Part shown: one piece after another, positions 8,459 to 42,232 of the stretch
Numbering within the stretch: the stretch's first letter is position 1
Layout of the letters: the number at the start of each line of letters is the position of its first letter
NCBI GenBank assembly: GCA_020351835.1
Contig: CP070669.1
Span: 1,736,827-1,800,826, forward strand
DNA: 64,000 nucleotides
Reading direction: 5' to 3'
Source of the DNA: Nitrospirota bacterium
GTDB lineage: Bacteria > Nitrospirota > Thermodesulfovibrionia > Thermodesulfovibrionales > BMS3Bbin05
Made by a program: the position numbers and the translations under genes
Notes under the pieces: model-generated
Seen by the model: the letters and a program-made list of their open reading frames with translations, nothing else
What the model was told of the DNA's origin: nothing
The model's database searches: none

Positions 8459-8941
8459 ATGCCATCATTTGATATTGTATCTGAAATCAATATGCACGAA
8501 GCAACGAATGCCATCGATCAGGCGAACAGGGAGGTAGCAAATCGTTTTGACTTTAAAGGGACGAACTCCCGCTATGACAGGTCTGATGATGACATAATGA
8601 TGACATCTGTGTCAGAGTTCAATTTGAAGCAGATGATCGAGATCCTCAAGCTGAAACTGACCAAGAGGGGCATAGATATCAGCTGTCTTGAGGTCTCCGA
8701 ACCTGATATCTCCGGTAAAGAGGCACGTCAGAAGATCACCCTAAAGCAGGGGATCGATACTGAACTTGCTAAGAAGATCGTGAAGATGATAAAGGACGCA
8801 AAAATGAAGGTTCAGGGATCTGTACAGGGTGATAAGGTCAGGGTCTCTGGCAAAAAAAGGGACGACCTGCAAAAGGTTATATCGATGGTAAAAGATGCTG
8901 AGCTCGGAATTCCACTTCAGTTCGTTAATATGAGAGATTAA
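8459..8941 (+). CDS. yajQ: YajQ-family nucleotide/c-di-GMP-binding protein (UPF0234)
   Basis: The N-terminus MPSFDIVSEINMHEATNAIDQANREVANRFDFKG and the length of 160 aa are diagnostic of YajQ. Confidence 0.85.
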   Translation: MPSFDIVSEINMHEATNAIDQANREVANRFDFKGTNSRYDRSDDDIMMTSVSEFNLKQMIEILKLKLTKRGIDISCLEVSEPDISGKEARQKITLKQGIDTELAKKIVKMIKDAKMKVQGSVQGDKVRVSGKKRDDLQKVISMVKDAELGIPLQFVNMRD

Positions 8942-10683
8942 CCTGTTTCAGCTACATTTTCGTCGCTAAGGTCAATATTACCGTCTATCGCTCTCAGACC
9001 TTCTATTGCTTTCTCATTAAAAGGGGAAATATCGAGAGCCTTCCTGAAAGAGCTTTTAGCCCTTTGTTTGAACCCAAGTTTATAGAAAGTAAAACCCAGT
9101 GCAGTATGATAGTTTGTCATGTCGGGATCAAGCCTGACCGCCTCCTTTAGCTCTTTAGATGCTTCCTTGTAGAATGACAGCCTGTTAAGAGCAAGCCCTC
9201 TGTAATAATGATATTTTGCGTTGAACCCGGCGATCGATATAGCTTCAGCAAAAAGCTGCTCTGCCTCTATATAAGAATGGTGCAGCATTTTTGACCGACC
9301 TTCTTCGAACTTCTTTTCAGCTTCCTGTTCAACGGTCAGATCGCCTTCTGCAATGTTCTCATCGGGCTCGGTCTGAAGCGATTCATCATATTCTTCCCGC
9401 TCCTCCAGGTCAGACAACGCGTTATAGGCTTCAGTTATAATGCCTAGTATTTCGTTCAACTTTCTCTTGGTATCCTCCGATGATATGGCGAAATGCCTGT
9501 CAGGGTGGAACTCCTTGGCAAGACTAAAATATGCCTTCTTTATCTCATCCGTTGTCGCATATGACTTCACACCGAGCACTTTGTAATAATTTGCGGTCTG
9601 GCATATATCATACATATCATCCACCATTTTTACGAACTCCTGATCGATCTCCGCGAGCGGTTCGCTGATGATCTCCTCCGGGGTCACGTACTGCTGGGGC
9701 TGGTCCTTCTTCCTCTCCACTATGATCCGTGCGCTAAGAAAAGCATAGATCGATTTTATTGTCTCAAAATCGTTCATAAGTTCCGGGGTCAGGATATCCC
9801 TTATAGGTGTCTCTCCGTCTATTCTCGAAAGTATCTCCTTCCCTGTATCATCTAGGGCAAGGTCCTGGAACAGGTCCATTGGGTCCTCAGATAGGCACAA
9901 TACTGTATCAAGAGAAGGGAAGTCCTGCAGTATGTACTGAAAATTATTGATCCTTTTAATACTATGATATATAAGGTTTGCAGCGCTCAGGTTCAATGTG
10001 ATAGCCTCATTTGCTGTCAAAGGCCCCTCCTCGAACTCGAAATAACCGCAATCGCTGATCAATATACTGACAATTATTTCCATTACCTGATGCCTTACAG
10101 CTTTAGTTAGATCTGTCGCGTCAAGGTAGCCTAGCTTTATAAGCACAGCACCAAGTCTGTTGCCTGTGCTTTTTAACAGCTCACTTGCCTCAAAATATTG
10201 TTCCAGAGATATCTGCCCTTCTTTAAGCAGGACCTCGCCGAAGCGGTCATCTTCCCTGTTAGAACGGGCAAATACCATATCTCCGCCTTTTATGAATATT
10301 TTTGTTACTCTGGACCCTGATGTAACGACAAGTGTCCCTGTCTTCATGCTTCTCTGCAATCCGAGCAATATGTCAGGGAGCCTGAACTCCTGACAACTAC
10401 CCTTTATGGCACCTACCCGCCTGAACCCTACTATCAAACCCTGAAGTGACGGCTTGCTCCAGATGACCTCCCCCAGGAAGTCGATCTCGTACTCCTCAAT
10501 ATCTACTTGTATAACCTTGCCTTGCGGGAATGAGGGTGCGCGGTCCAGTATATGAAGGCACAGTCCATCGGCAGAATAGTCGATCGTTTTGCACCTGTAT
10601 CTTTCCGCATCGATCTTAAGCAAAAACTCCGTCTCTCTCTTATATCGTCTGAATATTCTCTTTTCGTCACTTCTTTCGATCAA
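8938..10683 (-). CDS. PilZ / PATAN(DUF4388) / J-domain / TPR multidomain protein
   Basis: The PilZ motifs are RRYKR (RxxxR) and DYSADG (DxSxxG). A DUF4388-like block is present (MKTGTLVVTSG..IFIKGGDMVFARS..RFGEVLLKEG). The J domain is YYKVLGV...AKEFHPDR, which includes HPD. The C-terminus carries TPR-like repeats. Confidence 0.75.
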   Translation of the reverse strand: MIERSDEKRIFRRYKRETEFLLKIDAERYRCKTIDYSADGLCLHILDRAPSFPQGKVIQVDIEEYEIDFLGEVIWSKPSLQGLIVGFRRVGAIKGSCQEFRLPDILLGLQRSMKTGTLVVTSGSRVTKIFIKGGDMVFARSNREDDRFGEVLLKEGQISLEQYFEASELLKSTGNRLGAVLIKLGYLDATDLTKAVRHQVMEIIVSILISDCGYFEFEEGPLTANEAITLNLSAANLIYHSIKRINNFQYILQDFPSLDTVLCLSEDPMDLFQDLALDDTGKEILSRIDGETPIRDILTPELMNDFETIKSIYAFLSARIIVERKKDQPQQYVTPEEIISEPLAEIDQEFVKMVDDMYDICQTANYYKVLGVKSYATTDEIKKAYFSLAKEFHPDRHFAISSEDTKRKLNEILGIITEAYNALSDLEEREEYDESLQTEPDENIAEGDLTVEQEAEKKFEEGRSKMLHHSYIEAEQLFAEAISIAGFNAKYHYYRGLALNRLSFYKEASKELKEAVRLDPDMTNYHTALGFTFYKLGFKQRAKSSFRKALDISPFNEKAIEGLRAIDGNIDLSDENVAETG

Positions 10684-10755: not shown

Positions 10756-11397
10756 TTATTCGTCTTCAAGTCGATCGTCAGCGACCACCATTCCCGGCGT
10801 TACCCTTTCATCAATGAATGATGCCGGATCACTGATACTTCGCAGGAACACCGGCATCAGGAACTTATAAACAATGAAAACCTTATCTTTCATTCCTTTC
10901 CTTTCGCCCTCTGCGATCCTTGACTTATATTCCTCATGTATCCTGCTCTTCACAATCGGCAGTATCTTTACTGACAGCGACATCGTTCTGAACAGTTCTC
11001 TTATCGGCAATCCCACCTTCTCGAGCGGCCTCAAAAGCTCTCCCAAGGCATTAAGCGATTCATCAAGGGGTGATACTATAGTCAGGAACTTTGCTCCGTA
11101 TATCAACAGCAACACTCTCATCGTCCTAATAGAAGCTATACGGATACCTTCCTCTGTAATGATAAATGGCCCCAGGTCGAACATTATCCTCCCGGGATAA
11201 AATAGAACATTGGTAATGAAAGTGATAAAGAGAAAGATGGATATCGGAACGAAGCCAGTCTTAAGCTTTCTGTAGGGGAGCAAGATAGCAAGCGCTATAG
11301 CTAAAGCACAACCGGATGACAGAACAATGAGATCAGATATCCAGAATATAGAAGCCGCAAATACTATATATCCCGCGATACAGATCCTGGGGGCCAA
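10756..11397 (-). CDS. EcfT/CbiQ-like transmembrane component (TTG start)
   Basis: It is a multi-TM protein with the block TIVSPLDESLNALGELLRPLEKVGLPIRELFRTMSLSVKILP, typical of the CbiQ/EcfT family. No ATPase or S component lies adjacent. Confidence 0.6.
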   Translation of the reverse strand: MAPRICIAGYIVFAASIFWISDLIVLSSGCALAIALAILLPYRKLKTGFVPISIFLFITFITNVLFYPGRIMFDLGPFIITEEGIRIASIRTMRVLLLIYGAKFLTIVSPLDESLNALGELLRPLEKVGLPIRELFRTMSLSVKILPIVKSRIHEEYKSRIAEGERKGMKDKVFIVYKFLMPVFLRSISDPASFIDERVTPGMVVADDRLEDE

Positions 11398-11401
11398 GCT
11401 A

Positions 11402-12553
11402 TTACCTGCTGGCCAGTTTGGGCATGTCGGGGAGAGTTGAGAGGAATGAATTGATCCCCTTAGCTATGGATAAGGCCAGGTCCTTTCTGTATGAAGTCCT
11501 TCTCATCATAAGTTCTTCTTTTGGATTGGATATATAACCTATCTCAAGAAGTGCCGACGGCATATCCGTAAATAAGACGTAAAAACGTGCGTACTTAATA
11601 TCAAGATCAACAATCCTGCTTTTATATTTTACTTTCAGGTTCTTGATCATCGAACTTTGAATGTATCTTGCCAGTCTTCCTGAAGTATCCCGCTTAAGCG
11701 AGGTATCCAGGTCGGCCAGTATCTGGTCCTTGACCGATTCATATTTCTTCTGCTCTTCCAGTGAGATCGCGTTCTCTCTCGCCGCTACCTTCTGGTATTC
11801 CAGGTTATTCGTATGGTTAAGGAACCATGTCTCTATTCCACGTAATCCTCTCTTTCTGCTTGCATTTGCGTGAATCGATATAAATACATCAGCCTTGATG
11901 GAATTTGCATAAGAGGCCCTTCTACGAAGCTCGACGAACTTATCGGACTCGCGGGTCATATATACCTTTACAGCATACTTGCTCTCTAGAATCTCCTTTA
12001 CACGCTTTGAGACATCAAGCACAACATCCTTTTCCTTAAGACCTCTTCTTCCTATAGCACCGGGGTCCTTCCCGCCGTGCCCAGCATCAATAACCACTAT
12101 CTTCTTTCTGGGAATGAACTCATCTACCTTCACACCATGGTTGATGTCAATGACTATACGGTCAGGGCTCTGGAGTGTATAGATGTTATAATCGTCATAC
12201 GATCCAAGGCTCAGAACTACCCGAGTGGTCTTTTGATCGAACTCGGAGACCTGAACAGTCTTTACACTATTGTCATTTATTTCTAATGTCTCTTTATGGA
12301 ATGTCCCCGGATCAGTATCCTGGATATCAAAATACAGCCTGTCGGGAAACTTCAAGAGGTTCGGCTCATATGATGCCTTCTTATCAAGTTCAACTACTAC
12401 CCTCGTATATTTTTCATTGGTACTATACCTGATATCCGTGACGGTACTTTTATTTGATGACGAAAAAACAAGCGAAGAGGTCATCGAGAACGCAATGATC
12501 AGTAACAGCACCTTCAATGCCTTTCTCCAAAATATCACTCCGTATCCCTTCAT
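11402..12553 (-). CDS. N-acetylmuramoyl-L-alanine amidase with an AMIN domain
   Basis: An AMIN-like N-terminal domain is present (TDIRYSTNEKYTRVVVELDK...). An Amidase_3 core follows (VVIDAGHGGKDPGA...FISIHANA...ALLEIGYISN). Confidence 0.85.
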   Translation of the reverse strand: MKGYGVIFWRKALKVLLLIIAFSMTSSLVFSSSNKSTVTDIRYSTNEKYTRVVVELDKKASYEPNLLKFPDRLYFDIQDTDPGTFHKETLEINDNSVKTVQVSEFDQKTTRVVLSLGSYDDYNIYTLQSPDRIVIDINHGVKVDEFIPRKKIVVIDAGHGGKDPGAIGRRGLKEKDVVLDVSKRVKEILESKYAVKVYMTRESDKFVELRRRASYANSIKADVFISIHANASRKRGLRGIETWFLNHTNNLEYQKVAARENAISLEEQKKYESVKDQILADLDTSLKRDTSGRLARYIQSSMIKNLKVKYKSRIVDLDIKYARFYVLFTDMPSALLEIGYISNPKEELMMRRTSYRKDLALSIAKGINSFLSTLPDMPKLASR

Positions 12554-14111: not shown

Positions 14112-15509
14112 TTAAAGGAGATACTCGGCCAGGTTTATCTTGTATTTATTAGGATCCAGGGTCTTATATATGCTTCTTTTATATTTTCCATCATCCGTCT
14201 TATCGGTAAGGTCAACAACGTAACCATCAACCTTCTTCCCCTGACTGTTAACTATCACAAGCACTCTTGGCCTGTCATTGAAAAGAGGATTTGTCTCATG
14301 GACCAGCCCCATCTCTTTGCTATTCAAGAAAACTAGCGTCCCTATCGGGAATACGCCTACCATATTAACGAACACCTTCAGTAGAATCGGGTCTATCATG
14401 CTTCCAGCCCTGTCAACCATTACGCTAAGCGCTTTGTCGGGTCTAAGCGGGACCCTCGAATATACCCTGGAAGAGGTCATCGCATCATACTGATCGGCGA
14501 TGGTAACTATCCTTGAGAAGAAATCAAGTTCTTTCGTATACCTGACTATAGGATATCCTTTCAGGTCAAAATTCAGATGATGTTCAAAAGCTACGATCGC
14601 CGTTTTTATAGTGGTACTGTCGAGCCCCTTCAACTTAATGGCTGCCTGGGCCCCCCAGTATGGATGCTTCTTGACCACATCCCACTCTTGATCCGTAAAG
14701 CTCGATGGTTTGTTCAGGATTTCAGGGGGTATGTCCATCTTTCCCAGGTCATGGAACAGAGCCACCATTCCAAGTTCTGTCACCTGTTTCTTACTAAGTC
14801 CCAGTTTATGCCCAAGTGCAACCGCCAGGATACTGACATTGACCGAATGATGATATGTATAGTCATCATATTCCTTAATAGCCGTCATGCCGAGCACCAG
14901 CGATTCCTCCTCAAGTATCATGTCGACCATGGATTCGACGACCCTTTTAGCCTTCTTAAGCCCTACCTTCTCACCCGATTTGATCTTCGATATTACTCCT
15001 TTGCTGAACGAAACAGCATTGAAATAGGTCTTCTTAACTACCTTTCTCGGATCACTATCTCCTTCCTCTTTGATATGCTTCAGCCGTCCAAGTATCATCT
15101 GCGGTGTTTCTTTCATCATATCGGCCATCGCTATAAGTTTATCCTGTGCGTTCTGGCAACCCAGGAAGGCCTTGATGAACCTCTGCATGTCAACCGGACC
15201 TATGACATTCTTGAACTCAATGTTGCCTAGTTCTCTTTCCTTGAACTCCTTCATTAGATAGTCGAAATTAAGCAGGAACTCAACGGAATATCTGACCCTT
15301 GTATCATTTACATAGAAGAATTCACCAACAACCTCTATCGATACAACTGCCTCTGACTCGATAAATGGATTTATCAAGGCTACGAACTTCTCAATAGCGC
15401 TAAGCACAGCGACGTTAGATGGCGAGTGGAACTGGGCCGACCTCAGTACGACCGCCAGCTGGTTTATGATGTTCTTTGCCTCTTTATTTAGTTCTTTCTG
15501 GAACTCCAT
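14112..15509 (-). CDS. HD-GYP c-di-GMP phosphodiesterase with an N-terminal sensor-like domain
   Basis: The motifs HHSVNV, FHDLGK and HHLNFDLKGYP are present. Its start overlaps the upstream HEAT-repeat gene by 26 nt. Confidence 0.85.
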   Translation of the reverse strand: MEFQKELNKEAKNIINQLAVVLRSAQFHSPSNVAVLSAIEKFVALINPFIESEAVVSIEVVGEFFYVNDTRVRYSVEFLLNFDYLMKEFKERELGNIEFKNVIGPVDMQRFIKAFLGCQNAQDKLIAMADMMKETPQMILGRLKHIKEEGDSDPRKVVKKTYFNAVSFSKGVISKIKSGEKVGLKKAKRVVESMVDMILEEESLVLGMTAIKEYDDYTYHHSVNVSILAVALGHKLGLSKKQVTELGMVALFHDLGKMDIPPEILNKPSSFTDQEWDVVKKHPYWGAQAAIKLKGLDSTTIKTAIVAFEHHLNFDLKGYPIVRYTKELDFFSRIVTIADQYDAMTSSRVYSRVPLRPDKALSVMVDRAGSMIDPILLKVFVNMVGVFPIGTLVFLNSKEMGLVHETNPLFNDRPRVLVIVNSQGKKVDGYVVDLTDKTDDGKYKRSIYKTLDPNKYKINLAEYLL

Positions 15510-36248: not shown

Positions 36249-38924
36249 ATGGTAAATCTGATACTTAGAAAGATTTTTGGCACAAAGACCGAAAGAGAGC
36301 TTAAACGCTTATTGCCCCTTGTAGAACAGATTAACGGACTTGAAGCCTCTATATCAACCCTCTCTGACGAGCAACTTCAGGGCAAAACGGAGGAGTTCAG
36401 GGCAAGGCTGAGGAGCGGAGAAACTTTGGACGATATACTGCCGGAGGCCTTTTCGGTCGTGAGAGAAGCCTCCAGACGCATCCTTAATATGAGGCATTTC
36501 GATGTTCAGTTAATGGGTGGCATGGTACTTCATGAGGGTAAGATAGCAGAGATGAAGACCGGGGAAGGAAAGACGCTCGTCGCGACGGCCCCTGTTTACC
36601 TTAATTCAATAGAAGGAAGGGGTGTTCACGTCGTAACAGTAAATGACTACCTTGCCAAGAGAGATGCCCAGTGGATGAGCCCTGTATATCATTTTCTCGG
36701 TCTTACCGTAGGGGTCATTCAGTCCGACCATTCTTTTTTTTATGATCCTTCTTATACAGGAGATGATGTGCGCTTGCAGAACCTGAGACCTTGCAGCAGA
36801 CATGAAGCATATTCAAAGGATATAACATACGGTACCAATAATGAGTTCGGATTTGACTATCTTAGAGATAACATGAAGTACGAATTCAGTGATTATAGTC
36901 AGAAGGTCCACAACTTTGCGATAGTGGATGAAGTGGATAGTATCCTTATAGACGAGGCCCGTACCCCGCTAATAATCTCAGGGCCGTCCGAAGAATCAAC
37001 TGATAAGTACTACAATATAAACAGGATGATCCCTAAGCTTCAGGTCGATCAGGACTTTACTATAGATGAAAAGGCCAAGACCGCCATTCTCACCGAGGAA
37101 GGAAGTGTAAGAGCAGAGCAACTGCTAAATGTTGACAACCTTTTCGATCCATCTAACATCGATCTTGTTCATCACGTTCTTCAGGGCCTTAAGGCTCATC
37201 ACCTCTTCAGGAAGGATGTTGATTATGTTGTCAAGAACGGCGAGATCATAATAGTAGACGAGTTCACTGGGAGGCTCATGCCGGGAAGGAGGTGGTCGGA
37301 CGGGCTTCACCAGGCTATAGAGGCTAAGGAACATGTAAAGATCGCAAGCGAGAACCAAACGCTTGCCACGATCACATTTCAGAACTACTTCAGGATGTAT
37401 GACAAATTGGCTGGAATGACAGGAACGGCAGATACTGAGGCAGAGGAGTTCGCAAAGATATATGATCTTGATGTAGTGGTAATACCGACCAATAGGGACA
37501 TGGTAAGAAATGACCATTCAGATATGATATATAAGACCGAAGCTGCAAAGTTCAGGGCTGCAATAAATGAGATAAGGGACTGCCATGAAAGAGGGCAGCC
37601 GACTCTGGTCGGGACTATATCTATAGAAAAGTCTGAACTTCTCAGTAAGATGCTCAAAAAGGAGAAGATACCCCACTCAGTGCTAAATGCAAAGTATCAT
37701 GAAAAGGAAGCGGAGATCATAGCTCAGGCCGGCAGGCTTGGGGCGGTGACCATAGCAACAAACATGGCCGGAAGAGGCACTGATATTGTGTTAGGTGGAA
37801 ATCCCGGTATAGTTTCGAGAGAGATACTGAGAGATATTAACGATCCTTCAGATGAACAGTTGCAGGATGCTCACAGCAAAGCAGAGGAGCAGTGCCTTGC
37901 CGAAAAAGAGAAAGTACTTGAAGCCGGAGGACTACATATCCTTGGAACGGAAAGGCATGAGGCAAGACGTATCGACAACCAGTTGAGAGGCCGTTCAGGA
38001 AGGCAGGGAGACCCTGGAAGCTCCAGGTTCTATCTTTCACTTGAAGATGACCTGATGAGGATATTCGGTTCTGACCGGATATCAGGGCTTATGGACCGAC
38101 TCGGAATGGAGGAGGACGTACCGATCGAGAACAGACTCGTGAGCCGCGCCATAGAGACATCACAAAAGAGGGTCGAGTCACATAACTTCGACATCAGAAA
38201 GCATCTTCTTGAGTATGACGATGTAATGAACAAGCAGAGAACCGAGATATATGCATACAGGAGAGAGATACTCACATCGGATTCACTTAGGGACAAGGTT
38301 GTTGAAATGATAGACATATGCATTGATGAGCTATTGTTTATTTATTGCCCTGAGGATAAGCACCCTGAAGAGTGGAATTTTTCAGGGCTTAAGGAGGCCT
38401 ATTACGGTATTTTCGGGTTCACTCCATCCGGAACGGAGGATATAAAGGGCATTGAAGCGCTCAGGCAGGAACTTACTGAACAATCGTTAACCTTCTACAG
38501 TGTCAAAGAGAGCGAGATAACCGAAGAGGTCATCCGCAGCATAGAAAAAATGGTCATGCTCCAGGTAGTAGATAGCCAGTGGAAAGATCATCTTCTGGCG
38601 ATGGACCACCTTAAGGAAGGAATTGGGTTAAGGGGTTATGGACAGAGAGATCCTCTTGTTGAATATAAAAGAGAGGCATACGATATGTTCACTGATATGA
38701 CAGACAGGATCAATACGGAGATAATTACAAGAGTGTTCAGAGTTCAGATTAGATCAGAGCAGGAATTATCAGGCTCTATCAATAGATCTCAAAAAATGGT
38801 ATACAGTAGAGGGGAGTCTGAGTCAAAACAGCCTGTAAAGAAGACCGCTAAGGTCGGGAGAAACCAGCCCTGCCCTTGCGGGAGCGGCAAAAAATACAAG
38901 AAGTGTTGTGGTGCTAATGTATAA
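36249..38924 (+). CDS. secA: Preprotein translocase ATPase SecA
   Basis: I trimmed the start to [20 protein letters not shown], the conserved SecA N-terminus. The block [12 protein letters not shown] and the DEVD box are present. The C-terminal zinc finger is [14 protein letters not shown]. Confidence 0.95.
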
Positions 38925-40320
38925 TGTAATAATCATAGGTAGCGATCTCCAGTTTGATGAGAAGTTCAAGACGATCATTGCGGAATCTAATATTAATGCG
39001 ACCTCTTTCAAGACCATTTCACAGGCAAATAAGCATATAAAGGACGCATCAGCAATAATAATAACTAACGAGATGTCAGCCGATAAGGGGTTTGGAGAGT
39101 TCATAAGGAGAACGGAGGACATACCAAAACTGGTGGTTATGAAGGAATCCCCTATGAGAGGGTTGAACAAATGGACAAGATCTGACCTCATCTATCCGAT
39201 CCTTACTCCCTCACATAAGGAACTTCTTTTCTACATAAATAAAGCTATCGCCGACAGTGAGATTTATCATAAATACGCTGAACTGAAGAACGATTTCCTG
39301 ATCGCAAAGAATGACCTCGTCCTGTACGAAGAGATGAACAGGTCACTTACAGCATCCCTTGACCTTGACGAGATCATAGATAATTTCATGAAGCTTATAG
39401 TTGACAATGCTAATGCGAAGGAGTGGTCCCTTTATTTCTACGATGAAGAAGAGAAGGGGTTATTTCTTGAGAAGACCCATAGAAAGAGCCAGAAGAGATC
39501 AAAGAACGACAGACTGAAGCTCGGAGAGGGAATAGCAGGATGGGTCGCTCAGGAAGGACATCCGATCATAATACCTGACTCAAGCAGGGATAAAAGAATA
39601 AGCGCAAAATCAAAGAAGGAAAAAGTTATACAGAATAAATCGATCATCTGTGTACCACTTAAGAGCAAAGGAGACCTGATCGGGGTACTTGAGGTATTTA
39701 ACAAGAAAAAGAACGTGCCGTTCTCAAAACATGATCTTGATATTATTCAGAAGATAGCTGACTATGCGTCCATTGCTATAGAAAGAGCGTCGCTATACCA
39801 GAAGATGGCTGATCTTGCTATTACTGACGACCTGACGAAATTATTTAACTCCAGATATCTTAACAGGACAATAGAGATAGAGCTTACAAGATGTGAGAGG
39901 TACAATACCTCGGTATCATTGATATTCATGGACCTTGACTATTTCAAGGAGATAAACGACCAGCACGGTCATCTGGTCGGAAGCAAGGTTCTGGTTGAAC
40001 TTGGTCAACTACTTATAAAAGGCCTCAGATCAGTTGATATAGTTTCCAGGTATGGAGGAGATGAGTTCGTCATCGTGTTGCCTCAGACCTCTCCTACTGT
40101 CGCCACCGAAATAGCGGACAGACTGCGCATATCGATAAACAGGCATATCTTTCTTAAAAAAGATGGGCTCAACCTTAAACTTACGGCTAGTTTTGGTATT
40201 GCATCATATCCTGAAAGCGCTGGTTCAAAAGAAGAACTACTAAGACTTGCAGATGAGGCAATGTACGAGGTAAAGAACAGGACAAGGGACGGCGTCTACA
40301 CTATAAAAGCCTCTTCTTAA
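38917..40320 (+). CDS. Diguanylate cyclase with a degenerate receiver-like N-terminus and a GAF domain
   Basis: The motif [13 protein letters not shown] carries an RSVD I-site five residues upstream. A GAF-like block is present ([19 protein letters not shown]). The ATG overlaps the secA stop by 8 nt. Confidence 0.85.
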
Positions 40321-40363: not shown

Positions 40364-42232
40364 ATGGCTCTTTTTAATTACGCGACAAAAGAGATCACTC
40401 TCAAGATAGTCTATTACGGACCAGGCCTCAGCGGGAAAACCACTAATATTGAATATCTACACTCGACGTTTGATCCTAAAAGCAGGGGAAAGCTTCTTTC
40501 ATTGTCCACAGAAGCTGACAGGACCCTCTTCTTCGATTTCCTTCCTGTCGAGATAGGAAAGATAAAGGAGTTCTCGATACGGTTCCAGCTCTATACTGTG
40601 CCAGGACAGGTACGGTACAACTCTACAAGAAAGCTTGTATTAAAAGGTGCTGATGCAGTTGTATTCGTCGCCGATTCGCAGGAGGCAATGAAAGAGGCTA
40701 ATATCGAGAGCTATCAGAATATGAAGGAGAACCTTTTAGAGAATGGCCTTGATATCAATGATATCCCTATTGTGTATCATTATAATAAGCGTGATCTTCC
40801 GGATATCCAAAGTGTCGATGCTATTAGCAGGGACATTAATCCTAACGGAGCATCATTTTTCGAGGGTGTTGCTATAGAAGGAAAGGGAGTAGAGGAGGCT
40901 TTTCAGGCCGTAACAAAACAATTACTTAAGCATATAGCCAGGAAGCACCGCATTGATCTCTCTTCGAAGGAAACGATGTCAGTTGAAACGCCGTCATTGG
41001 TCGAAGAGGAGGTTATTGAGGAGCTATCGCCCCTGGAAGCCATTCATGCAGATGAAATGGGCATGGAAGCTGAGGAGACAGTCGAAGCTGGTATCTTTGA
41101 AGGTGAGGGCTCATCTTTGGAGGAACTTCATGCCGAAGTAGTAAGTGATATCGATGAAGATGAGGCAGTGGAAGCAGACATATTCGAACCGGGTACTGGA
41201 TCAGATGAGATCAATGACGTACCTTCACTTGAGGAACTTCAGGAAAAGATGGCCCGTGAGTTGGAGGATGATTCGACAGCGGATGCAGAGGCCGTCCTGT
41301 CAAAAGGAGCTGACTTTGAATATGAAGGTGAAGACGATGCATTCGTCCTTGAAGAACCTTCTATTGATGATACAGCTGGATCAAGTTTTGATGACGGATC
41401 AGATGACATAGATCTGGTGAGCTCTGAGTTCGATGATACACCTACCGAAACAATGGATGACCTGCAGGACCAGGAAGAGGTCATGGAGAGCTCAACTATC
41501 GAAGACAGGGATGAAGAGATGTCCTTTGAGATACCTGAAGAACCTGCTGAACAGGAACCTGACAATGTCATAGAAGAAGAGCCTGAGCAAGAGGATGAAT
41601 CTATTGAATCCATTTATAAGGCATTTATGACCGAAGAGGAGGAAGATACGGGTGATGTAGCCGAGTCAACGCCTGAGCCTGATTTCACTCCACCTCCCCC
41701 TATAGTTGAAAGTACTCCTGAAGTCAAACCTAGTCCTTCCGAAGAGATCGAGATCACACTTCCTGAAGGGTCCGAGGAAGAGGAACCGGCCTTTGAAGAA
41801 CCTGAAACTGAAGCAGTTGAGTCAGCTGAGTTCAATGACTTCAGTAGCGCTATATCCGAAATGGAGCGTGAGAAACCTGCACAAGATACCCGTTCTGAAA
41901 AGTTATCGCCTGTATCCGGGGAAACCGGCATATCTGAAGCAACAAGGAACGTTATCCTCGATGAGATCAACGCTCTTTCCAAGAGCGTAGGTAAAATGGG
42001 TAGTGCTATGTCTTCCTTTAAGTCCGAGCTTAGCGTACTGGCGGACAGGATAGCTGACATTGAAAAAAGCATATCTTCGATAAGTGAACAGGCGGACGAA
42101 ATAAAGGAAGCGGTCGAGAACGGATCGGCCAGTCCCGGGATGTTAACAAGCCAGACCCTCGAGACGATAATGCAGTTGAAAAGCAGTATAGATAAGGCAA
42201 AAAAGAAGAAGTTCTGGTTATTTTTCAGCTAG
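40364..42232 (+). CDS. MglA-like Ras-superfamily GTPase fused to a long acidic low-complexity C-terminal region
   Basis: The first roughly 190 aa closely follow the MglA pattern (KIVYYGPGLSGKTTN, STEADRTLFFDFLP, LYTVPGQVRY, YNKRDL). The remaining roughly 430 aa are D/E/S/P-rich. A coiled-coil-like end terminates in KAKKKKFWLFFS. Confidence 0.8.
   Translation: MALFNYATKEITLKIVYYGPGLSGKTTNIEYLHSTFDPKSRGKLLSLSTEADRTLFFDFLPVEIGKIKEFSIRFQLYTVPGQVRYNSTRKLVLKGADAVVFVADSQEAMKEANIESYQNMKENLLENGLDINDIPIVYHYNKRDLPDIQSVDAISRDINPNGASFFEGVAIEGKGVEEAFQAVTKQLLKHIARKHRIDLSSKETMSVETPSLVEEEVIEELSPLEAIHADEMGMEAEETVEAGIFEGEGSSLEELHAEVVSDIDEDEAVEADIFEPGTGSDEINDVPSLEELQEKMARELEDDSTADAEAVLSKGADFEYEGEDDAFVLEEPSIDDTAGSSFDDGSDDIDLVSSEFDDTPTETMDDLQDQEEVMESSTIEDRDEEMSFEIPEEPAEQEPDNVIEEEPEQEDESIESIYKAFMTEEEEDTGDVAESTPEPDFTPPPPIVESTPEVKPSPSEEIEITLPEGSEEEEPAFEEPETEAVESAEFNDFSSAISEMEREKPAQDTRSEKLSPVSGETGISEATRNVILDEINALSKSVGKMGSAMSSFKSELSVLADRIADIEKSISSISEQADEIKEAVENGSASPGMLTSQTLETIMQLKSSIDKAKKKKFWLFFS

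Follow-up and report, generated by a model that had tools for sequence, protein, structure and literature searches.

c-di-GMP is known to control enzymes and transcription factors, as well as secretion ATPases and the motors of flagella or pili. To our knowledge, the PilZ-DnaK proteins of Myxococcus xanthus are the sole hint that this second messenger also controls the Hsp70 system directly. Four PilZ proteins of M. xanthus carry a DnaK or a DnaJ domain (PMC8316039), and the PilZ-DnaK chaperones CsdK1 and CsdK2 have been characterised genetically, their binding of c-di-GMP being predicted from motifs (PMC10313047). Mutants lacking csdK1/2 are normal in viability, motility, EPS and development (PMC10313047), a phenotype that weighs against the c-di-GMP-responsive adaptor proposed below. 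When 24 PilZ genes of M. xanthus were deleted, defects in motility or development were reported for plpA, pixA, pixB and pkn1 only. In the M. xanthus PilZ-DnaK and PilZ-DnaJ proteins, PilZ is fused to part of the Hsp70 machinery, which suggests that c-di-GMP feeds into what the chaperone does with particular clients. Specialised J proteins are also described in Nostoc (DnaJ3, with DnaK1), M. xanthus (SgmC, with SglK), Shewanella (AtcJ) and Mycoplasma (TopJ). They act with dedicated DnaK paralogs and take Hsp70 to a single task, namely T4P and EPS in Nostoc and M. xanthus, and cold adaptation or a polar organelle in the others, and not to folding in general.

The gene described here (8938..10683 on the (-) strand of the window, i.e. 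the whole stretch of 64,000 nucleotides analysed) has a TTG start and encodes a protein of 581 aa in which a PilZ domain, a PATAN domain containing an alpha-clip, a middle domain, a J domain and a TPR module follow one another. Its product is 100% identical to the NCBI entry 'MAG: DnaJ domain-containing protein [Nitrospirota bacterium]', and AlphaFold2 modelled the whole protein with a mean pLDDT of 88.9 and a pTM of 0.79. The sequence-only reading had described a 581-aa ORF with PilZ, DUF4388/PATAN, J and TPR domains. The ORF is genuine, all four domains exceed their Pfam gathering scores (GA), and the Pfam profile search upheld the PilZ and J domains in particular. The gene thus encodes a real, conserved Nitrospirota protein with one, possibly two, predicted c-di-GMP modules and a J domain. 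Like CsdK1, CsdK2 and the M. xanthus PilZ-DnaJ proteins, it couples PilZ to the Hsp70 machinery, but CsdK1 and CsdK2 carry Hsp70 itself whereas the Nitrospirota protein carries a J domain. As far as the published descriptions, on which this comparison is based, go, none of the M. xanthus PilZ chaperone proteins is reported to have a PATAN domain, an MshEN-type alpha-clip, the middle domain or TPRs.

From the domain content and the predicted structure, we propose with moderate confidence that this is a cytoplasmic class-C (type III) J-domain protein acting as a c-di-GMP-responsive DnaK/Hsp70 adaptor for specific clients. A c-di-GMP input with an Hsp70 output is a reasonable hypothesis because about 90 homologs keep both the PilZ contacts and the HPD tripeptide of the J domain with hardly any change. 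DnaJ3, SgmC, AtcJ and TopJ are likewise class-C-like J proteins; the likeness is drawn on the J domain alone, and no second-messenger receptor domain is reported in any of them.

The best 80 genome matches were all from Nitrospirota (Thermodesulfovibrionia; 80/80), with 2-4 paralogs per genome. The protein belongs to a large modular family that, in this genome scan, is confined to Nitrospirota. The core of the family is formed by PATAN, the middle domain and J. PilZ may be present or absent, and members end either in TPRs or in an acidic linker and one transmembrane (TM) helix. The TM-anchored sister proteins sometimes have a periplasmic RodZ_C domain after the helix. Among 149 representatives at 50% identity, 46 have the architecture PilZ-PATAN-MID-J-TPR, 28 PATAN-MID-J-TPR and 22 PilZ-PATAN-MID-J-TM, next to others that include a J-less variant, PilZ-PATAN-MID-TM (6/149). 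The sensor half alone, used as homology query, gave 10 matches, a number set by the word-index limit.

The PilZ domain (residues 8-96, 10396..10662 (-)) is a predicted beta-barrel. It matched PF07238 with 35.2 bits against a GA of 22.5 over residues 8-88, and the same profile is precomputed in the database entries of most family members. The AlphaFold2 model places the PilZ strands at residues 19-96. As a single-sequence query against the PDB the domain gave noise only, so that structural matches required the family profile, which recovered the solved PilZ domains of Lpg0364, BcsA and PA4608. In an alignment of 89 full-length homologs with 34-73% identity to the target, R9 is kept in 86/89 and R13 in 87/89. 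The segment R9-IFR-R13 (10645..10659 (-)), at the N-terminal edge of the domain, aligns with RRSHR of the c-di-GMP-bound PilZ domain of BcsA. Since R9 and R13 are conserved and aligned to BcsA, an intact RxxxR motif is present, three residues upstream of the RRYKR that had been named at first; the latter register (R12 to R16) does not hold, R16 not being conserved. The second motif, DYSADG, was correctly recognised as a true (D/N)xSxxG: D35-Y-S-A-D-G40 (10564..10581 (-)) lies downstream of RxxxR within the expected distance of about 20-30 residues and aligns with DFSDGG of BcsA, with D35 in 83/89 members (N in the other 6) and S37 and G40 in 89/89 each. This pattern indicates that both c-di-GMP-binding motifs are under strong purifying selection. 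PilZ domains without ligand binding have usually lost motif residues. In the case of M. xanthus PlpA, intact PilZ motifs proved no guarantee of c-di-GMP binding.

The PATAN domain (DUF4388, PatA_N; residues 95-246, 9946..10401 (-)) matched PF14332 with 67.8 bits (GA 25), which bears out the DUF4388/PATAN-like assignment made earlier. A helical insertion was inferred because 152 residues match 118 profile positions, and the AlphaFold2 model has four helices at 148-209 within the domain. For the PATAN beta-core, Foldseek gave no confident PDB fold match. The same PATAN/DUF4388 domain with a two-repeat alpha-clip insertion occurs in the PatA-type PATAN-REC regulators of cyanobacteria (PixE, PixG, LsiR, PatA), and cyanobacterial PATAN regulators are membrane-localised and have the T4P motor proteins PilB1 and PilC as binding partners. 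Unlike PatA-type regulators, the Nitrospirota protein has no receiver domain (no Response_reg match in the Pfam and NCBIfam searches of the 581-aa protein), its predicted input is PilZ and not phosphorylation, and its output is a J domain with TPRs. It is, by its domain matches, a PATAN-containing protein and not a PatA-type regulator.

The insertion itself is predicted to be an MshEN-type 24-5-24 four-helix module. This alpha-clip (10087..10245 (-)) is a 53-residue unit of two 24-residue motifs (residues 147-170 and 176-199) and a 5-residue spacer (171-175). It covers 53/53 positions of NCBIfam NF053729, the MshE-related c-di-GMP motif, with 38.5 bits (cut-off 38), and this profile matches 80/85 family members. 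Foldseek with the full-length model was swamped by TPR matches; with a truncated model, the top match of the alpha-clip was MshE with bound c-di-GMP (5HTL; 53 columns, rmsd 0.6 A, 42% identity, probability 1.0). The predicted model superposed on c-di-GMP-bound GSPII-B of PilF at 1.2-1.4 A, and the matches also included the PilB(N)-PilZ complex 7LKM. The alpha-clip thus shares the 24-5-24 motifs and the four-helix bundle with the MshEN (GSPII) domains of MshE, PilB and PilF (5HTL, 8PDK). In contrast to these proteins, it is inserted in PATAN, and the likeness is confined to the 53-residue N-subdomain, without MshEN_C and without a secretion ATPase; T2SSE_N and T2SSE had no Pfam match at E<=1 in the 581-aa protein.

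The alpha-clip aligns without gaps to MshE residues 9-61. Its motif II is complete (R176, L177, G178, L192, V196, Q199). Motif I keeps R147, F148 and G149 and departs from MshE at three ligand contacts (L25 to Y163, L29 to S167 and Q32 to L170) as well as at I19 (Q157). These deviations are family-wide, Y at position 17 being found in 78/95 PilZ-containing and 24/28 PilZ-less paralogs. The alpha-clip had been missed by the first reading and is a candidate second c-di-GMP site, but binding there is uncertain because motif I deviates at three ligand-contact positions.

These features bear on two other explanations of the sensor half. According to the first, the protein is a J-domain adaptor in which PilZ and the alpha-clip serve as protein-interaction modules without nucleotide, so that DnaK would be recruited constitutively and c-di-GMP would have no direct role. 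[quoted passage not shown] The departure of motif I from the consensus at 3-4 key positions speaks for it, as do the GSPII-A domain of Thermus PilF, which is near-consensus and does not bind c-di-GMP, the presence of 7LKM among the Foldseek matches and the many paralogs without PilZ. However, R9, R13, D35, S37 and G40 are near-invariant in about 90 diverged homologs, which is hard to explain without a ligand, and the alpha-clip has an entirely canonical motif II. We therefore regard constitutive recruitment as unlikely.

According to the second, the PATAN alpha-clip and not PilZ is the main ligand site, or is an additional one, perhaps with an altered specificity, one of its guanine half-sites being canonical and the other remodelled (Tyr, Val/Ser, Leu/Met). 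In that case a nucleotide would regulate even the paralogs without PilZ, and those with PilZ would sense two inputs. The 24-5-24 module is found with the same deviations in paralogs with and without PilZ, and the breadth of the NF053729 matches and the close superposition of the model on ligand-bound MshE point the same way. Moreover, according to Wang et al., perfect motifs are unnecessary and the MshEN-containing response regulator Bd2402 is a tight c-di-GMP binder, and PilF GSPII-B still has a KD of 6 nM after replacement of the first-position Arg in both motifs. On the other hand, single substitutions of conserved MshEN hydrophobics cut the affinity more than 10-fold, and the loss of binding in XpsE has been attributed to changes that include one of the I19R type, while the family has K/R/Q at this position. 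The NF053729 score lies just 0.5 bit over the cut-off, and the literature searched contained no report of c-di-GMP binding by any PATAN alpha-clip. This second explanation seems rather unlikely, and the c-di-GMP-responsive adaptor, with PilZ and possibly also the alpha-clip as receptors, is preferred.

PATAN is followed by a middle domain (residues 247-345, 9649..9945 (-)), a small alpha/beta fold without a family name, for which Pfam and NCBIfam searches gave no match. It is modelled with a pLDDT of about 85-95, has near-invariant P268, L271, F272, Q273 and L315 in the family alignment, and adjoins PATAN in most of the 149 representatives, being an almost constant companion of PATAN in the family. 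It had been overlooked in the first reading.

The J domain (residues 365-433, 9385..9591 (-)) matched PF00226 with 60.6 bits (GA 27.8) and forms four helices in the AlphaFold2 model. The HPD tripeptide (residues 393-395, 9499..9507 (-)), the Hsp70 contact, is invariant in 89/89 full-length members and likewise in alignments A1 and A3, so the early claim of a J domain with an intact HPD stands. F392, K408, L409, A419 and Y420 are at least 90% conserved in the family alignment. Translation of the stated coordinates confirmed the HPD as well as the two PilZ motifs. Conservation at this level implies that the Hsp70 interface is functional, and a vestigial J domain in a c-di-GMP-binding scaffold or sink independent of Hsp70, which the J-less variants might suggest, is highly improbable given this record and the profile score. 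The protein is not a DnaJ ortholog, because it scores far below the cut-off of TIGR02349 (full DnaJ; 60.9 vs 377.2) and only the J domain aligns. CbpA (NF007618) is likewise far off (34.5 vs 403). Orthology to DnaJ (class A) or CbpA (class B) was accordingly ruled out, the NCBIfam alignment being limited to the J domain and including no G/F-rich region, zinc finger or DnaJ C-terminal client-binding domain, and the JGI name 'curved DNA-binding protein CbpA' given to homologs is an over-annotation.

A low-confidence linker (441-446 in the AlphaFold2 model) joins the C-terminal TPR module (residues 451-568, 8980..9333 (-)), which consists of three repeats and a capping helix. TPR_2 (35.6 bits, GA 27) and TPR_11 (32.7 bits, GA 26.8) gave matches at residues 489-556, in agreement with the repeats first noticed there. 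Foldseek gave target-normalised TM-scores of 0.9-0.95 to three-TPR domains, among them SGT, HOP TPR1, RPAP3 and CHIP; the similarity to SGT, HOP and CHIP is taken as generic. The Hsp70/Hsp90 EEVD clamp positions (K, N, N, K and R on the A helices of the three repeats), compared by eye in the sequence, read EEGR, YYRG and TALG where K..GN, N and K...R would be expected, and on this inspection a 'carboxylate-clamp' reading of the TPRs appears unlikely. The eukaryotic DNAJC3/P58IPK and DNAJC7 also combine J and TPR in one chain, and DNAJC3 (2Y4T) was among the top PDB sequence matches. DNAJC3, however, has its TPRs before the J domain, in reversed order, nine of them against three here, and no sensor domain; the likeness to DNAJC3 and DNAJC7 is a convergent domain combination and not orthology.

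Taken together, these features allow a sequence of steps to be proposed for the c-di-GMP-responsive adaptor. c-di-GMP would bind to the PilZ domain and possibly also, at a different affinity, to the alpha-clip. The ligand might then alter the packing of the sensor half against the J domain, or the position of the J domain. The PATAN-middle unit and the TPRs would choose the client or the site, where the J domain would stimulate ATP hydrolysis by DnaK so that Hsp70 clamps the chosen client. Since sister proteins carry a TM helix, sometimes with RodZ_C after it, the most likely site of action is a membrane-associated envelope or pilus-type machinery, which is the least certain step. It is conceivable, although doubtful, that the two receptor types, PilZ and the alpha-clip in PATAN, together act as a switch, with two thresholds or by coincidence, that permits Hsp70 to be recruited to machinery at the membrane. 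The alpha-clip is conserved as an asymmetric module in which one guanine half-site is canonical and the other remodelled, which may also mean that the second site reads another cyclic dinucleotide.

The earlier statement that no experimentally characterised example was known agrees with our literature searches insofar as they found no paper on a c-di-GMP-regulated J-domain protein. The concept is less new than that statement implied, being preceded by the M. xanthus PilZ-DnaK chaperones (PMC10313047, PMC8316039) and by the PilZ-DnaJ proteins. The same searches found no experimental c-di-GMP studies in Nitrospirota. If the proposal is true, it would give the widespread and poorly understood PATAN alpha-clip a ligand-binding role and Nitrospirota/Thermodesulfovibrionia an extra receptor class. 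The 581-aa protein is soluble and confidently modelled, which makes it well suited to clean in vitro work on second-messenger gating of a J-domain co-chaperone, and paralogs that lack PilZ or have a membrane anchor in place of the TPRs are natural controls.

The gene neighbourhood was compared over 82 family loci. When the 20 flanking proteins of the window were searched at these loci, the best-shared neighbour occurred in 4/82 and YajQ in 0/82. De novo clustering of the flanking ORFs gave no neighbour in more than 17/82 loci, the most frequent clusters being limited to one paralog subgroup, and two family loci (L001 and L002) had unrelated neighbours. As no neighbour is conserved over the 82 loci, the gene is not part of an operon. 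The promoter and terminator scan gave no signal above shuffles, and none of its candidates lay in the 72-bp gap upstream of the gene. A DnaK gene was absent from the window and from the 82 family loci. The YajQ gene, which overlaps the 3' end, and an HD-GYP gene 3.4 kb upstream were considered as partners and rejected, neither being conserved. An MglA-like GTPase, cited at first in support of a polarity or motility theme, does exist (40364-42232 (+)), but it lies 30 kb away, is unlinked and belongs to a neighbourhood that is not conserved, so its relevance falls away. A PilB-type ATPase is found near only 2/82 family loci, which, like the lack of a conserved neighbour and of a DnaK gene, counts against the c-di-GMP-responsive adaptor. 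In favour of the adaptor, the same window also encodes a GAF-GGDEF protein with an I-site and an intact HD-GYP protein, from which the organism is predicted to both make and degrade c-di-GMP.

The gene (window positions 8938 to 10683, minus strand) starts with TTG, with a GGGGG run about 9-13 nt to its 5' side, and its 581-aa product is 100% identical over the full length to the NCBI entry 'MAG: DnaJ domain-containing protein [Nitrospirota bacterium]'. The four domains described from the sequence alone were all found in this single protein above their Pfam gathering scores, namely PilZ (residues 8-88), DUF4388/PATAN (residues 95-246; 9946-10401), DnaJ, the J domain (residues 365-433), and TPR_2/TPR_11 (residues 489-556), all on the minus strand and with E-values from 1e-8 to 1e-18, far beyond chance. 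A small alpha/beta domain, called MID here (residues 247-345; 9649-9945, minus strand), was recognized by its confident fold and its conservation. The AlphaFold2 models had a pLDDT of 88.9 and a pTM of 0.79 for the full-length protein, and a pLDDT of 88.6 for residues 90-350. Conservation was counted in an alignment of 89 full-length homologs (34-73% identity), all of which keep the HPD motif that had been read as intact. This confirms the four-domain observation; the register of one motif had to be corrected, and two further features came to light.

The correction concerns the PilZ domain. Both of its motifs are intact and near-invariant as claimed, but the 'RRYKR' previously taken as RxxxR is three residues out of register: its last arginine, R16, is variable (K22, R14, H14 and others), while the conserved motif is R-I-F-R-R, with R9 in 86 and R13 in 87 of the 89 homologs. 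The DxSxxG motif has D in 83 homologs (N in the other 6), and S and G in all 89. [quoted passage not shown] Since these contact residues are near-invariant, the PilZ domain probably binds c-di-GMP; PlpA, as a counter-example, keeps us from wording this more firmly.

A second candidate c-di-GMP site lies within PATAN. The DUF4388 model has 122 positions and matches 152 residues of the protein, which indicates an insertion, modeled by AlphaFold2 as four helices over residues 148-209. The NCBIfam model NF053729 ('MshE-related c-di-GMP motif') spans residues 147-199, referred to as the alpha-clip, end to end (38.5 bits, cut-off 38), and of 85 family members it hits 80 (best E-value 9.4e-13). The alpha-clip has exactly the MshEN layout of 24 residues, a 5-residue spacer and 24 residues described by Wang et al. 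(PMC5013675). The best Foldseek match of the 90-350 model was MshE with c-di-GMP (5HTL; 53 columns, rmsd 0.6 A, 42% identity, Foldseek probability 1.0), followed by the c-di-GMP-bound GSPII-B of Thermus PilF (1.2-1.4 A). Makarova et al. 2006 (cited in bioRxiv 2021.06.11.447907) had already identified the PATAN insertion as the repeat that T2SS/T4P ATPases carry at their N-terminus.

In an ungapped phmmer alignment, R147/F148/G149 correspond to MshE R9/L10/G11, and R176/L177/G178/L192/V196/Q199 to MshE R38/L39/G40/L54/L58/Q61, so that motif II, and motif I at its start, follow the canonical pattern. Motif I deviates from MshE at L25 (Y163), L29 (S167) and Q32 (L170), and I19 is replaced by Q157. 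These deviations are kept alike in paralogs with or without PilZ (position 17 is Y in 78 of 95 PilZ-containing and 24 of 28 PilZ-less paralogs, and position 24 is L, M or I), and define a variant rather than decay. MshEN affinity falls more than 10-fold on single hydrophobic substitutions, and an I19R-type change is among those listed as inactivating XpsE; binding is nevertheless possible despite imperfect motifs, as in the MshEN-containing regulator Bd2402 (Wang et al., PMC5013675). PilF GSPII-A has near-consensus motifs yet does not bind c-di-GMP, while GSPII-B binds at 6 nM without the first-position arginine in either motif. Binding of c-di-GMP by the candidate alpha-clip site is thus conceivable but somewhat doubtful. 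Literature searches returned no report of a PATAN-context alpha-clip repeat binding c-di-GMP.

For the PATAN beta-core (residues ~95-146 and 210-246), Foldseek returned no confident solved structural relative, its only matches being weak ones (probability 0.1-0.4) to subdomains of the actin-like ATPases PilM, MreB, EutJ and PPX/GppA. MID matches no Pfam or NCBIfam model, nor any fold in the PDB; it is found together with PATAN in nearly every family member, and its residues P268, L271, F272, Q273 and L315 are near-invariant. Judged by its sequence, the protein is a class-C J protein, lacking a G/F region, a zinc finger and a DnaJ C-terminal domain. The J region alone aligns with the DnaJ model TIGR02349 (60.9, cut-off 377) and with the CbpA model NF007618 (34.5, cut-off 403); 'CbpA', the name that JGI gives to homologs, over-annotates them. 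The TPR module, modeled as three repeats tethered by a low-confidence linker (residues 441-446), is closest in fold to the SGT, HOP, CHIP and RPAP3 class. EEVD-clamp residues were not seen by eye, so this likeness was taken as generic and a clamp reading is not favoured.

In a word-indexed search, over 100 clusters shared this Pfam content, and a one-genome-per-GTDB-species scan found 187 relatives. The best 80 of these were all MAGs labelled Nitrospirota, Nitrospirae, Thermodesulfovibrionia/-ales or 'uncultured/unclassified bacterium', and the family was seen among them only in Nitrospirota, a result limited to the family-specific J-domain peptide pattern on which the scan was keyed. Single genomes carry 2-4 paralogs (four in DASPRG01), PilZ-less ones included. 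The source genome of the window has a second copy elsewhere (P0010, 54% identity), and one metagenomic contig (L002, 8001-11562) bears two adjacent full-architecture paralogs of 601 and 571 aa, tail to tail.

When 1.84 billion representatives were searched exhaustively with HMMER, over 150 at the 50% identity level had scores above 386 bits, and 149 of these were classified by BLASTP against the query's domains and a hydropathy scan. They comprised PilZ-PATAN-MID-J-TPR (46, plus 5 with MID undetected), PATAN-MID-J-TPR (28, plus 3), PilZ-PATAN-MID-J-TM (22), PilZ-PATAN-MID-J (14), PATAN-MID-J-TM (6) and, without a J domain, PilZ-PATAN-MID-TM (6). In the TM forms (P0152, P0159, P0237, P0252, P0120 and others), TPR gives way to a long linker rich in Glu and Asp and to one predicted transmembrane helix, which in nearly all cases lies within ~50-150 residues of the C-terminus; some also have a periplasmic RodZ_C domain. 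In some sister proteins PilZ follows the J domain. PATAN-MID(-J) is therefore the conserved core, with PilZ as an optional input and TPR and the membrane anchor as alternative C-terminal modules.

That HPD is invariant speaks for an interaction of the protein with an Hsp70. In the most economical model, it would be a ligand-responsive adaptor for DnaK, in which the PATAN-MID unit and TPR (in sister proteins, the membrane anchor) would select the site, DnaK would be loaded by the J domain, and c-di-GMP would alter the geometry or availability of the site-choosing parts or of the J domain. A membrane-associated target is favoured, because TM and RodZ_C sister architectures exist, because Synechocystis PATAN proteins bind PilB1 and PilC and localise to the membrane (bioRxiv 2021.06.11.447907), and because specialised DnaK/J systems serve T4P and polysaccharide secretion (Nostoc DnaK1/DnaJ3; M. 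xanthus SglK/GrpS/SgmC). The proposal of a c-di-GMP-controlled co-chaperone is, as a hypothesis, partly supported, and as a candidate for a co-chaperone gated by a second messenger the protein is clean and testable.

The second-messenger/Hsp70 concept is not unprecedented. Nearest to this protein among those described are CsdK1 and CsdK2, PilZ-DnaK chaperones of M. xanthus in which PilZ is likewise fused to an Hsp70-system component; they are genetically characterised, with c-di-GMP binding predicted only (PMC10313047). [quoted passage not shown] In full-text literature searches, neither a c-di-GMP-regulated J-domain protein nor a PATAN-DnaJ protein appeared as the subject of a study. Public databases already list the present protein and its Pfam architecture. 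What is new beyond the fusion of PilZ to an Hsp70 component is therefore the PATAN-embedded MshEN-type module and the modular, multi-paralog family.

No gene neighbour was conserved across 82 compared loci; L001 and L002 have unrelated neighbours. DnaK genes are missing from the window and from all 82 loci, and only two loci have a PilB-type ATPase nearby. On the 5' side of the target gene, in the same orientation, come genes for a CbiQ-like membrane protein (10756-11397, minus) and an AMIN-domain N-acetylmuramoyl-L-alanine amidase (11402-12553, minus). The 72-bp gap between the CbiQ-like gene and the target contains nothing resembling a promoter or terminator, so co-transcription with them is possible; this gene order is not kept elsewhere. 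A convergent YajQ/DUF520 gene (8459-8941, plus; 160 aa, Pfam 214.7 bits) shares 4 nt with the 3' end of the target and occurs at none of the 82 other loci. Some YajQ proteins are reported to bind c-di-GMP.

The window shows that the organism runs c-di-GMP signalling. It encodes an HD_5 protein (14112-15509, minus; 465 aa) with intact HD (253) and GYP (318) motifs, likely a c-di-GMP phosphodiesterase, homologs of which lie near family members in 3 of the 82 loci (L014, L024, L025), and a GAF-GGDEF diguanylate cyclase (38908-40320, plus) with GGDEF at 383 and an RxxD I-site (RSVD) five residues upstream. The MglA-like GTPase that the sequence-only reading had linked to a polarity or motility theme is present (40364-42232, plus; 622 aa), but it lies 30 kb away and is not evidence about the target protein. 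Its C-terminal ~430 aa are extremely acidic and of low complexity. The GTPase gene starts 44 nt after the GAF-GGDEF gene, and the two could make up a separate c-di-GMP/polarity gene pair.
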